Source: Escherichia phage SR02
Direction: 5' to 3' (one strand)
Sequence record: OQ870566.1
DNA: 64,000 bases
Shown here: in pieces, positions 23,471 through 26,293 of the stretch
Layout of the letters: each line of letters starts with the position of its first letter
How positions within the stretch are numbered: the stretch's first letter is position 1
The notes under the pieces: generated by a model
Databases searched by the model: none
Seen by the model: only the letters and a program-made list of their open reading frames with translations
Told to the model about the DNA's origin: nothing
Translations under genes and position numbers: made by a program

Positions 23471-23977
23471 CACCGACTTATAGCCCTTGTGTCTATCAGA
23501 GGGCTATGTGAGGGTGTTCCTCATTAACTTATTAATTCAGGCATATGCCACACCGCTAGGGAGAGCTTGCTCAAACATCCGGTGCTAGACTAAAACCTGT
23601 TAATTTTCGAAAGACTTTCTGATATGTAGGGGTACATATTAGTTTGGGATTCAGGAGACTTCCTAGGGGTAGGGAGTCTTCACCAGTTGGAATAAGAGAT
23701 AGCTCTAGAACCTGAACTCTTAGGCAGAGAAGGTCGGCAATGAGTACGCGGTCAGGATTAGTCTACTGACTAGGGCTATCCCTTATATCAACTGGCAATA
23801 ATGCCTCCACTAACAAAGAGAGATAGGTATGAAAGTATCAACCAAACGTATGAACCGCCCTGAACGTATGGATGCAGTAGCTAACGGTGCTCTGAAACTG
23901 GAAGGCTTCTGGATTCATGCAATGTCAGCCATCCGTAGTAAGCAAGGTAATTGGACATATAACAGTTAATAATTAAA

Positions 23978-24009
23978 AGGCTGCCCAATCGGGTGGCCTT
24001 TGTTGTTTT
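23978..24009 (+). terminator. rho-independent terminator
   Basis: Hairpin AGGCUGCC-CAAUCG-GGUGGCCU followed by UUGUUGUUUU; near-identical hairpin at 50138. Confidence 0.6.
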
Positions 24010-24108
24010 AGGTAAATCACCTTTAATTGCTTTTCCCATCTGCATTCCACATGAATGAGTGCAGCAGTGATTGGGGTGGTTTACCTAAACTAACAAGAGG
24101 AAGCTAAA

Positions 24109-24285
24109 ATGTCTAAGCAAACAATCAAACATACGCAAGCTGGTTACTCTTATGTTAACTCTCCTTGCTGTGGTGCTCGTGTTAATCTGGTTAAAGAAGA
24201 GGTTCGTATCGTTCAGCGTGGCGCTACTGTTGTTCGTTCATGTTGCGTCTGTGGTAATGATATTTTTATTAAAGGTAAAGTATGA
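24109..24285 (+). CDS. small zinc-ribbon protein (58 aa)
   Basis: Manually translated; SPCCGARV...SCCVCGND Cys pairs; AGAGGA RBS. Confidence 0.4.
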   Translation: MSKQTIKHTQAGYSYVNSPCCGARVNLVKEEVRIVQRGATVVRSCCVCGNDIFIKGKV

Positions 24286-24533
24286 AAAACTTTCAAGCTG
24301 CACCAATCACTAAAGTGATCGAAGTTGACGGTGTAATGATGACTGTTCCTCTGAACACTCGTTACATTGCAATTGACAAGATGGGCTATGTATGGGCTTG
24401 GAAGATCAAGCCTAGTTATAACGCACTGTTTGATGAGTTTGTTTGTACTGGTACTTACAGTCCTACATTCTTGGGTTTATTTGGAGAGTTTGATGGTAAG
24501 CATAAAATCATCACTCTCCCTGCTTGTGCTTGA
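24282..24533 (+). CDS. hypothetical protein (83 aa)
   Basis: ATGA overlap with previous ORF. Confidence 0.45.
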   Translation: MKNFQAAPITKVIEVDGVMMTVPLNTRYIAIDKMGYVWAWKIKPSYNALFDEFVCTGTYSPTFLGLFGEFDGKHKIITLPACA

Positions 24534-24540
24534 GGTTATT

Positions 24541-24705
24541 ATGTTCAAGTGGTTTAAACGTTTCTTCCATCTCCATGATTGGGAGACAATAAAAGAAATT
24601 CGTTTACACATACATAATGAGATTGGTCAAATAGAAGACACAGGTACTCGTTATATACTTCGATGTAAAACATGTGGTCATATCACCAAGCGAGATATGA
24701 TCTAA
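24541..24705 (+). CDS. small Cys-containing protein (54 aa)
   Basis: ATG after TGAGGTTATT RBS context; CKTCGH motif. Confidence 0.3.
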   Translation: MFKWFKRFFHLHDWETIKEIRLHIHNEIGQIEDTGTRYILRCKTCGHITKRDMI

Positions 24706-24713
24706 ATAATTCT

Positions 24714-24789
24714 GCGCTCTTAGCTCAATGGATAGAGCAGTAGCCTTCTAAGCTATTGGTTACAGGTTCGAGTCCTGTAGGGCGCACCA
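24714..24789 (+). tRNA. tRNA-Arg (anticodon UCU)
   Basis: 76-nt cloverleaf folded by hand: acceptor GCGCTCT/AGGGCGC, D-stem GCTC/GAGC, anticodon stem GTAGC/GCTAT with loop CTTCTAA, T-arm ACAGG-TTCGAGT-CCTGT, encoded CCA. Confidence 0.85.
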
Positions 24790-24911
24790 CATTTAGGGCT
24801 AGTATGGGTGCGGCACCAGAGTTAGTGTATCCCTGTTGAGGCGAGTGCTTTTATAACAGTGGGAATTACTTTCTTAGTGAGCTTCTGGTTCGATTCCAGA
24901 TAGTCCACCAA
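24790..24911 (+). other. tRNA-like 3' element (canonical T-arm GGTTCGATTCC plus CCA) lacking foldable acceptor and anticodon arms
   Basis: T-arm UCUGG-UUCGAUU-CCAGA and ...UCCACCA read directly; no complementary 5' acceptor or anticodon stem found by hand. Confidence 0.3.
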
Positions 24912-24928
24912 ATTAAGTGAGAGGTATC

Positions 24929-25105
24929 ATGGGTAATAAACTTTTAGTTATCTCCATAACTGAAGTCAATCAAAAACTACAATCAAAAGTTAGAACCCTA
25001 GTCTTCTTAGATGAGGAAGAAGGTAGGGATTTTATTGAGAATTCCGGCAAAACAATAATCTCTGTTGAACTGGCCGAGGTTATGTGCTCTTACAAAGCTT
25101 TCTAG
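24929..25105 (+). CDS. hypothetical protein (58 aa)
   Basis: ATG with GAGAGG RBS. Confidence 0.35.
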   Translation: MGNKLLVISITEVNQKLQSKVRTLVFLDEEEGRDFIENSGKTIISVELAEVMCSYKAF

Positions 25106-25114
25106 GAGGTAATT

Positions 25115-25414
25115 ATGAGTTGGGGTGGTGTAATATCCTTAATCTGTATCTTCCTTGTCTGTATAGCCCTTACAGGCTGCGTACAGAGTCGTCCTGATGG
25201 ATGGTGTGCAGTAGCAGTGGAAGGTGTTTGTGTTTCTCGCTGGCATAAAGGTAAGAAGGTTCCTTCTGGTGAAATTGATATGCGCTGGAACGGAGCAACC
25301 TGCTCTAATGCTAACCCTTCTATCAACGAAGAGAAATCTACACCGGATAATGTTGTGATTGATACAGCGTTGTGGTGTGGTGGCTCTGTAACAACAACCG
25401 GTAAGGAGTGGTAA
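25115..25414 (+). CDS. Cys-rich lipoprotein (99 aa)
   Basis: Strong RBS TAGGAGG; signal peptide with lipobox LTGC (ISLICIFLVCIALTGC); several further Cys. Confidence 0.6.
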   Translation: MSWGGVISLICIFLVCIALTGCVQSRPDGWCAVAVEGVCVSRWHKGKKVPSGEIDMRWNGATCSNANPSINEEKSTPDNVVIDTALWCGGSVTTTGKEW

Positions 25415-25415
25415 T

Positions 25416-25664
25416 ATGACAGCTCATTATTGGAATACAAAGAAGCTTCTTGAAGAGATGGCTGGGGGTAGTAGAGTACAGCTAATCTCTATGCTTCGAA
25501 TGGATGCTCGCTCTTTACGTTTTCAAGTAAAGATTGGTAACTTTAGTGATGGTCTTTATTACACACTGAAGGAAAGAATTAAGAAGACTCACTTTATTAT
25601 GTACGGAATCAAACCGAGAACGTATGTTAACTACATGTATTGGGATACATGCTACGATAATTGA
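25416..25664 (+). CDS. hypothetical protein (82 aa)
   Basis: Tightly following ORF. Confidence 0.45.
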   Translation: MTAHYWNTKKLLEEMAGGSRVQLISMLRMDARSLRFQVKIGNFSDGLYYTLKERIKKTHFIMYGIKPRTYVNYMYWDTCYDN

Positions 25665-25671
25665 GGTTATT

Positions 25672-25893
25672 ATGTTATTTGAAGCTAAGCAAACATTACC
25701 AGTAGTTCCTTTGTCTACACTTCTTAGTGGGAGTGCTTTTAGACATGATAATGGTTTTTGGATTAAGGGCGACCAAGAGGTTGGAGGATATATTACCTGC
25801 ATCAACATCTGCAACGGCGTTGTTGACGGATTTCGTCCAGCCGCTGAAGTCACTCCTCAATCCAACGCAAAGGTTGTAGGTTTGGTATATTAA
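25672..25893 (+). CDS. hypothetical protein (73 aa)
   Basis: ATG after TGAGGTTATT RBS context. Confidence 0.4.
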   Translation: MLFEAKQTLPVVPLSTLLSGSAFRHDNGFWIKGDQEVGGYITCINICNGVVDGFRPAAEVTPQSNAKVVGLVY

Positions 25894-25902
25894 GGAGTTC
25901 AT

Positions 25903-26076
25903 ATGAGCTGTTTTGGTGGCGGTGAAGTAGATGACGATGATGACATGGAATCCAACGGTACATGTCCTGATTGTGGGTGTGAGACATGGGATGGGGTGTC
26001 TGTCTATCCTGTCTGTAGTTACTCACCAGTGATTTGTAAAACATGTGGAGATCAACCTTGTGATCAGTCCTGTTAG
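25903..26076 (+). CDS. small acidic Cys-rich protein (57 aa)
   Basis: AAGGAG RBS; CPDCGC...CKTCGDQPC clusters. Confidence 0.45.
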   Translation: MSCFGGGEVDDDDDMESNGTCPDCGCETWDGVSVYPVCSYSPVICKTCGDQPCDQSC

Positions 26077-26077
26077 T

Positions 26078-26293
26078 ATGTTAATTGTTTACCTGATAGG
26101 TGTGGTGTTATCAGGTGTGTTTGTTAAGGTTGTTGATATTAAAGATGATCAAGTCTTCAGACATTGGAGCGGATATCCAAACCTCAGCAAAATAGCAATT
26201 GTCCTTTTCTTGTGGCCTATCATTGTTGCGTTGCTTATAATTATAGGACTTTGGACTTTGCTATGGGAGTTAATTCTTCCTGTCAAAAAGTAA
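26078..26293 (+). CDS. small membrane protein with two TM helices (71 aa)
   Basis: Hydrophobic segments LIVYLIGVVLSGVFV and IAIVLFLWPIIVALLIIIGLW. Confidence 0.45.
   Translation: MLIVYLIGVVLSGVFVKVVDIKDDQVFRHWSGYPNLSKIAIVLFLWPIIVALLIIIGLWTLLWELILPVKK

Follow-up and report, generated by a model that had tools for sequence, protein, structure and literature searches.

A conserved, unannotated and probable tRNA-like RNA gene directly 3' of tRNA-Arg(UCU) in a Kuravirus-type phage

What is the sequence that directly follows the tRNA-Arg gene of this phage, that ends like a tRNA and yet does not fold as one? The window, ie the whole 64,000-nt stretch of DNA that was analysed, is that of a Kuravirus-type E. 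coli podophage of the Gordonclarkvirinae, the nearest records being Ec3-ASingh, EC.W2-6, ShigP1 and SU10. The only tRNA called by ARAGORN in the 64 kb window is tRNA-Arg(TCT) at 24714-24789, and Rfam RF00005 scores it at 72.4 bits (E = 7e-14), so the first 76 nt were correctly taken in the preliminary description for a tRNA-Arg(UCU) reading AGA. Its identity is 97-100% among relatives carrying the same tRNA type. AGA had also been thought to be rare in the host. It makes up 15.7% of the arginine codons in the long ORFs of the window, and in the related phage YF01 its share is 20.2% compared to 3.6% in E. coli K-12 (PMC9965538), in agreement with that suggestion.

The sequence directly 3' of this tRNA is a real, conserved and unannotated element, probably a tRNA-like RNA gene. 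Its parts, and those of its surroundings, are as follows.

24714-24789, + strand: tRNA-Arg(UCU), 76 nt, with an encoded CCA (ARAGORN; Rfam RF00005).
24785-24789 (left copy) and 24906-24910 (right copy), + strand: CACCA direct repeat, which bounds the presence/absence polymorphism.
24790-24795, + strand: spacer CAUUUA, the predicted 5' leader that RNase P would cut off (alignments).
24796-24910, + strand: predicted mature tRNA-like RNA of 115 nt, G...ACCA, its ends placed according to the closing stem and to the ACCA in the sequence.
24796-24801, + strand: 5' strand of the acceptor-like stem, GGGCUA, invariant, pairing with 24901-24906.
24805-24818, + strand: D-like arm, UGG / 8-nt loop GU(G/A)CGGCA / CCA, read from the sequence and from the alignment of covariance model R1 (below) to tRNA D-arms.
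24819-24875, + strand: long irregular hairpin, capped by a (G/A)AGU loop and comprising about 20 pairs, in the anticodon-arm position (constrained folds).
24876-24883, + strand: 8-nt linker AGUGAGCU, in the variable-loop position (constrained fold).
24884-24900, + strand: T-arm UCUGG-UUCGAUU-CCAGA (sequence).
24901-24906, + strand: 3' strand of the acceptor-like stem, UAGUCC, invariant (folding).
24907-24910, + strand: discriminator A and encoded CCA, where the conserved tract stops exactly (alignment).

The T-arm and the ...UCCACCA end (24904-24910) are present as the preliminary description had them. Its location for the element was also right, although the end given, 24911, overshoots the CCA by one base; conservation spans 24795-24910. 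In the 64 kb window there are only two occurrences of the T-loop core GGTTCRANTCC, one in the tRNA-Arg and one in the element, compared to 0.18 expected by chance, and the chance of a second T-loop motif lying no more than 200 nt downstream on the same strand is estimated at about 3e-4. No ORF of at least 30 aa overlaps the element on either strand. Since a T-arm and CCA are present, the T-loop core exceeds its expectation and no such ORF intervenes, the observation is not due to chance. The spacer reads CATTTA in type-1 contexts and ATTTTTAAACAA in YF01-type contexts, as judged from alignments. A24795 is kept in both upstream contexts, and conservation begins at A-GGGC. On the other side, most phages have AAAT after the CCA of the element, and EP335 has CTTT.

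The element was not called as a tRNA or a tmRNA by ARAGORN, with either default or intron settings, and a search of Rfam with 24790-24911 gave no match at gathering thresholds nor at E ≤ 10, RF00005 and the tmRNA models included. Relaxed ARAGORN settings (-ps80, -ps60, -ps50, introns up to 120 nt, tmRNA, mitochondrial) produced Lys(ttt) and Ile(tat) calls with 68-69-nt 'introns' starting within tRNA-Arg, a D-armless 'Arg(tct)' and permuted tmRNAs. These calls were rejected as noise because of their low scores and mutual inconsistency. With the relaxed ARAGORN and Rfam checks done, no canonical tRNA has been found, as the hand folding had anticipated. The T-arm has a GTTCRANYC loop and a CCA lies at the 3' end (24908-24910), but there is no 7-bp acceptor stem. 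The failure to find an anticodon arm was likewise borne out: a hairpin of about 57 nt stands in place of a 5-bp stem and a 7-nt loop with U33 and a purine at 37. The one anticodon-like mini-hairpin, UUAC-UUUCUUA-GUGA, has p = 0.04, a U at 37 and a variable loop of 2-3 nt.

Two of the identities that had been offered for the element did not fare well. If it were a tRNA with an insertion, removal of the inserted segment might be expected to restore a tRNA. Each contiguous segment of 10-84 nt was removed in turn and the 4497 derivatives were each passed through ARAGORN; only one was recognised, as an odd tRNA-Tyr(ata), and the insertion is therefore unsupported. A degenerate second tRNA, ie a decaying pseudogene, is disfavoured by the presence of only four variable sites in 116, the lack of indels, and an identity of 97% compared to 69-82% for the flanking ORFs.

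Other RNA classes were also considered for the element and set aside. A tmRNA identity was rejected, since ARAGORN -m and Rfam were negative and neither pseudoknots nor a credible tag reading frame could be found. There is an 11-codon ORF at 24803-24838 within the element (ATG GGT GCG GCA CCA GAG TTA GTG TAT CCC TGT TGA), with AGGG 5 nt upstream. Its product, MGAAPELVYPC, is unlikely to be made as a micro-ORF peptide or tmRNA tag because both natural variants internal to it are nonsynonymous (Ala to Thr, Glu to Lys). For YrlA (RF02553) the sole match was 14.1 bits compared to a gathering score of 69 (E = 4.7), and it lies over the tRNA-Arg rather than the element. A search of the window for antisense targets of the sRNA type gave one 13-mer, on the non-coding sense, at about chance level.

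An acceptor-stem partner, which the preliminary description could not find, does exist. GGGCUA (24796-24801) pairs with UAGUCC (24901-24906) in six base-pairs, including one G.U, with p = 0.97-1.0 in the unconstrained ensemble. Stacked on the T-arm it gives 6 + 5 = 11 base-pairs compared to 12 in a tRNA; a seventh acceptor pair would be A24795 with A24907. Fixing the acceptor stem and T-arm gives p = 0.63-0.83 for the lower helices of the long arm. The D-like loop carries the GG typical of D-loops, but the D-like arm is thermodynamically weak, with p = 0.12-0.14 compared to 0.4 for an alternative GGUG/CACC hairpin. In these models the element is laid out like a tRNA in which a long hairpin takes the place of the anticodon arm.

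The tRNA-like fold is not the one of lowest predicted energy. In the unconstrained minimum (-37.7 kcal/mol) the D-region pairs with the T-arm region, leaving the T-arm with p of about 0, and the tRNA-like fold is 5.6-6.5 kcal/mol less favourable. The z-score of the minimum-energy fold is just -1.98, and that fold loses its G25-C91 pair in two of the seven distinct sequences. All four variable sites are compatible with the tRNA-like fold, two of them falling in loops (24810 in the D-like loop, 24843 in the apical loop) and two being G.U to A-U type changes in the long arm that retain pairing (G.U/A-U at 24819, U-A/U.G at 24868). There is no compensatory covariation among the eight copies compared, which are too alike.

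A covariance model, R1, was built from the element with the tRNA-like structure imposed. It matches real tRNAs weakly but significantly, Jiaodavirus tRNA-Gln scoring 21.7 bits (E = 4e-4). In these alignments acceptor falls on acceptor, the D-like arm on the D-arm, the base of the long arm on the anticodon stem, and T-arm on T-arm. At the level of primary sequence, the last 28 nt or so of the element agree with the T-arm and 3' acceptor strand of the Jiaodavirus tRNA-Gln at 27 of 28 positions with one gap. The first 88 nt of the element gave no alignment above shuffled controls. Comparisons with T4 rnaC and rnaD, the three local tRNA-Arg types and the D-armless gene described below gave scores at the level of shuffled sequence outside the T-arm. 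An apparent similarity extending to the anticodon loop of T4 tRNA-Arg was dismissed, as only about one score unit is gained beyond the T-arm.

Alignment with related phages, which had been proposed as a check, revealed the conserved block, though no covariation could come from eight near-identical copies. The element was found in 29 phage records at 96.8-99.2% identity and is annotated in none of them; the conserved gene is missing from all the GenBank annotations examined. Within the Kuravirus literature consulted, neither a mention of the element nor small-RNA or RNA-seq data over this locus was found, and each paper reports a single tRNA; a search for RNA data from the Gordonclarkvirinae was likewise negative. 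The eight copies compared, from Kuravirus, Suseptimavirus and Nieuwekanaalvirus, differ at four of 116 nt (24810, 24819, 24843 and 24868) and have no indels. Between the window and EP335, identity is 96.6% in the element and 97.4% in tRNA-Arg, compared to 68.9% in the upstream ORF and 81.6% in the downstream ORF. Against EP335 the element is thus conserved beyond both flanking ORFs (Fisher p = 1e-9 for the upstream and 3e-5 for the downstream ORF).

The intact element is kept in three different upstream contexts: that of the window, that of YF01 and Bas91, and that of TH42 and HC-25922. In YF01 and Bas91 it lies beside a homing endonuclease gene and a different tRNA-Arg, 59.5% identical to that of the window. 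The HNH/homing endonuclease gene overlaps the start of this alternative tRNA-Arg(UCU) (YF01, L003 1427-1942; Bas91, L040 1-390), an arrangement which parallels T4 segB beside tRNA-Arg (L037) and which marks the locus as a recombination hot spot. In TH42 and HC-25922 a D-armless tRNA-Arg-like gene and a 3' tRNA fragment precede the intact element, and ARAGORN calls no tRNA. The D-armless tRNA-Arg(UCU)-like gene (HC-25922, L044 560-638; TH42, L041 260-338) has a variable region of about 20 nt. It scores 36.4 bits with the Rfam tRNA model, above the gathering score, and is both missed by ARAGORN and unannotated. The fragment that follows it is the 3' part of the YF01-type tRNA-Arg.

About two thirds of the related phages are without the element, and it is cleanly absent from MN03, ev_rybdy3, IMEP8, ES17 and SDYTW1. 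In element-less phages ...GCGCACC joins AAATC(A/T)AATAGGAGG directly, followed by the next ORF. This junction is exactly the one expected if the two CACCA copies (24785-24789 and 24906-24910) had been the end-points of a deletion, or of an insertion in the reverse direction. From its presence and absence among close relatives, the element is therefore dispensable, ie accessory, and where present it appears from the alignments to be constrained like a working tRNA. A 13-nt motif, GCACCA(C/G)A(T/G)TTAG or CCACCAAATTAAG, occurs in three copies: at the end of tRNA-Arg and the spacer (24784-24796), in the D-like region of the element (24813-24825), and at the end of the element and the spacer after it (24905-24917). 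These repeats hint that part of the element may have arisen through a duplicated tRNA-end junction.

Beyond the phage records no copies were found. Two exact patterns and one 28-mer gave chance matches or nothing in IMG/VR, as did two patterns in the JGI metagenomes. A 21-mer gave two matches in GTDB genomes, both by chance and in coding sequence, and blastn found no match to the element in 5,426 E. coli genomes and a plasmid collection. The absence of copies from all these collections indicates a narrow family.

The region around tRNA-Arg and the element is densely packed with small ORFs on the + strand. Neither promoter-like nor terminator-like sites were found in 24002-26089, and a search for a promoter or Rho-independent terminator in or near the element was negative. 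A strong intrinsic-terminator-like hairpin at 23976-24001 (11 pairs, then GTTGTTTTAG) is the only one upstream of the tRNA locus, and the next is at 26090-26117. From the positions of these two hairpins, tRNA-Arg and the element probably lie in one transcription unit, whose small ORFs include phrog_8294, phrog_1972 and phrog_4281. A segment of about 200 bp, 24912-25114, is absent from the closest relatives, in which the element directly precedes the conserved downstream ORF (25115-25414 in the window). Nothing in the phage collection matches this segment at the nucleotide level. Within it lies an ORF of 58 aa, running from an ATG at 24929 to 25105 with GAGAGG before it, which matches phrog_9816.

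On balance, we think it probable that the element is an accessory, non-decoding tRNA-like small RNA gene of about 115 nt, predicted to be co-transcribed with tRNA-Arg. In E. coli the 5' end of a tRNA is made by RNase P, which cuts before the first acceptor nucleotide that is paired and opposite an RCCA 3' end; on the 3' side RNase E cuts within AU-rich trailers, after which exonucleases trim back to the CCA. The element would be transcribed together with tRNA-Arg within the run of small + strand genes, as the absence of a nearby promoter-like or terminator-like site and the packed + strand ORFs suggest. RNase P would then cut 5' of G24796, and tRNA 3'-end processing would trim the transcript to the encoded CCA, to leave a stable RNA of about 115 nt (24796-24910). 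The GG-containing D-like loop and the T-loop may form a tRNA elbow, with the hairpin of about 57 nt replacing the anticodon arm, and the RNA would act as a tRNA mimic toward a tRNA-binding protein and not in decoding. The earlier proposal of a 3' tRNA-like structure addressed to tRNA-processing or tRNA-binding proteins is favoured by this evidence, with the qualification that it is a whole closed tRNA-like RNA and not merely a 3' structure.

Candidate partners, chosen purely by inference, are AlaRS, which might recognise G1-C72, G2-C71, G3.U70 and A73, EF-Tu, and tRNA-modifying enzymes. The RNA might instead be a decoy for a host defence nuclease that targets tRNA, a possibility of the same standing as alanylation. 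Phage tRNA loci and their homing endonucleases have recently been shown to act in defence evasion (PMC13096335), in an account that does not mention tRNA-like RNAs.

The locus is visibly shuffled, and it has to be asked whether the element is merely a relic: a scrambled or duplicated tRNA fragment left by homing-endonuclease recombination, non-functional, and conserved in appearance through recent gene conversion. HNH/homing endonuclease genes lie by the alternative tRNA-Arg in YF01 and Bas91, both a D-armless tRNA-like gene and a fragment of a tRNA 3' end occur in TH42 and HC-25922, five phages (MN03, ev_rybdy3, IMEP8, ES17 and SDYTW1) lack the element cleanly, and the element itself contains the repeat GCACCA(C/G)A(T/G)TTAG of the tRNA-end/spacer motif. 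Part of the high identity may be due not to selection but to a recent horizontal spread at a hot spot for homing endonucleases. However, conservation stops precisely where the tRNA-like RNA would begin and end, the spacers and ORFs on either side being different, and the examined copies have no indels. They are kept in three upstream contexts and three genera. A neutral tract of 116 nt would be expected to diverge like its flanks, by 18-31%, compared to the 3.4% observed, and we regard a relic, the main rival explanation, as unlikely. A purpose at the level of DNA, as the target or immunity site of a homing endonuclease or as an attP-like tRNA fragment, would fit the endonuclease genes near the element in some relatives and the fact that tRNA 3' fragments are typical of att sites. 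But the phages are lytic, no match exists in 5,426 E. coli genomes, the plasmid collection or GTDB representatives (two chance matches apart), and the closing stem, the T-arm and the ACCA boundary, which are strand-specific RNA features, would be left unexplained. This explanation is very improbable.

Two further explanations accept an RNA and differ as to its use. As a pure processing signal ('tRNA punctuation') the fold would serve only to bring RNase P and RNase E to the polycistronic transcript, whose cutting would give the downstream mRNA its 5' end, the released RNA having no role. The AU-rich stretch after the CCA, the Shine-Dalgarno and ATG of the next ORF within about 20 nt, and the absence of a promoter or terminator nearby would all suit such a signal. 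A second signal would be redundant, however, because in element-less phages tRNA-Arg already supplies the identical CCA-AAAUC junction. Moreover an acceptor stem and T helix would be enough for such a signal, yet variation is just as absent from the 57-nt arm and the D-like region, and the element is unchanged in the window, where the 24912-25114 insertion has altered the downstream gene. We consider a pure signal improbable, and the same holds for a sharper form of our preferred explanation, in which an RNA starting at G24796 is charged by AlaRS and engages EF-Tu, SmpB or trans-translation, or titrates AlaRS. What speaks for charging is the invariant acceptor GGGCUA/UAGUCC-A-CCA, read directly from the sequence. 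The E. coli tRNA-Ala acceptor is GGGGCUA/UAGCUCC-A-CCA, so that the element has the same stem minus one G-C pair, and its 3' 25 nt align with tRNA-Ala at 21 of 25 positions with one gap. G1-C72, G2-C71, G3.U70 and A73 make up the classical AlaRS identity set, of which G3:U70 with A73 is enough for the charging of helices without an anticodon; minihelices and tmRNA are also charged by AlaRS. Yet the register depends on the predicted 5' end, and with A24795 as +1 the wobble pair becomes 4:69. The 3' end is also nearer to tRNA-Gln with G73 deleted (27 of 28 positions), so that the G.U is possibly incidental. The stack is of 11 base-pairs, ARAGORN and Rfam call no tmRNA, there are no pseudoknots and no credible tag, and MGAAPELVYPC carries two of the four variable sites, both as nonsynonymous changes.

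A wider form of this proposal, for which we hold out slightly more hope while still thinking it unlikely, is that of a minimal, anticodon-less, alanine-accepting mimic, a tmRNA-type domain on a stick, which would engage AlaRS, EF-Tu or SmpB or else decoy or neutralise a tRNA-targeting immune nuclease of the host or a toxin that modifies the 3' CCA. If true, it would be a device for counter-defence or translation control, made of RNA and so far undescribed in phages, and the purpose of RNAs of the T4 RNAC type might be explained by it. More generally, if the RNA mimics tRNA so as to act on tRNA-targeting immunity or the translation machinery, a class of RNA would be added to the phage counter-defences. 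The system is tractable: there are natural relatives with and without the element, copies occur in SU10 and in the K-12-infecting BASEL phages SkaterBoy (Bas90) and LorandFenyves (Bas91), and the acceptor stem concretely predicts alanylation. SU10 has been studied structurally and Kuraviruses are being developed for phage therapy.

Among known systems, tmRNA (SsrA) resembles the element as an anticodon-less mimic that has an acceptor stem, an A-CCA end and a T-arm, and in which a long helix stands where the anticodon arm would be. The G3.U70, A73 and CCA of the tmRNA type would all be present in the element if its 5' end were G24796. In contrast, tmRNA is about 260-400 nt long with pseudoknots and a tag frame, whereas the element is 115 nt with a D-like stem and an acceptor of 6 base-pairs. 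YrlA (RF02553) is likewise a non-coding RNA containing a tRNA-like module, but the ends of a Y RNA form a Ro-binding stem and those of the element an acceptor with CCA. In tRNA-Gln(UUG) of the Klebsiella T4-like phages (Jiaodavirus) the T-arm, 3' acceptor strand and CCA are near-identical to those of the element. Both that tRNA and E. coli tRNA-Ala have a 5-bp/7-nt anticodon arm, which the element lacks, its acceptor being of 6 base-pairs.

The closest known analogue is T4 RNAC (species 1 RNA), although homology has not been found: local alignment finds the T-loop only, and with R1 the score of RNAC is 12.8 bits (E = 0.18). RNAC has its two ends closed in an acceptor-like stem beside a perfect T-arm, CCGGG-UUCGAAU-CCCGG, and its interior consists of large non-tRNA hairpins, the interior of the element being likewise unlike a tRNA. 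A tRNA gene as neighbour, a closing stem with a T-arm, and a non-tRNA interior, the features that mark the RNAC type, are all found in the element. RNAC is dispensable and its role is unknown according to reviews and a 2022 omics study (PMC3014915, PMC9697503). Rfam has no family for it; T4 rnaC (L037 1409-1547) gives a sub-threshold match to tRNA-Sec of 17.5 bits over its 3' 93 nt, and its fold has a z-score of -4.6. The gene order in T4 is tRNA-Arg, rnaD (119 nt), rnaC (139 nt), and the element, of similar size, likewise lies directly 3' of tRNA-Arg(UCU). The two RNAs differ in that RNAC has a big hairpin in the D-arm position and a second in the anticodon position, whereas the element keeps a D-like arm and replaces the anticodon arm, and in that the annotated 3' end of RNAC is without an encoded CCA, whereas the element encodes ACCA. 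They also belong to different phages, a podovirus of the Gordonclarkvirinae in one case and a myovirus of the Tevenvirinae in the other. Knowledge of phage tRNA-like stable RNAs goes back to species 1 and species 2 of T4, and the element would be a second, unrelated example, in another phage family.
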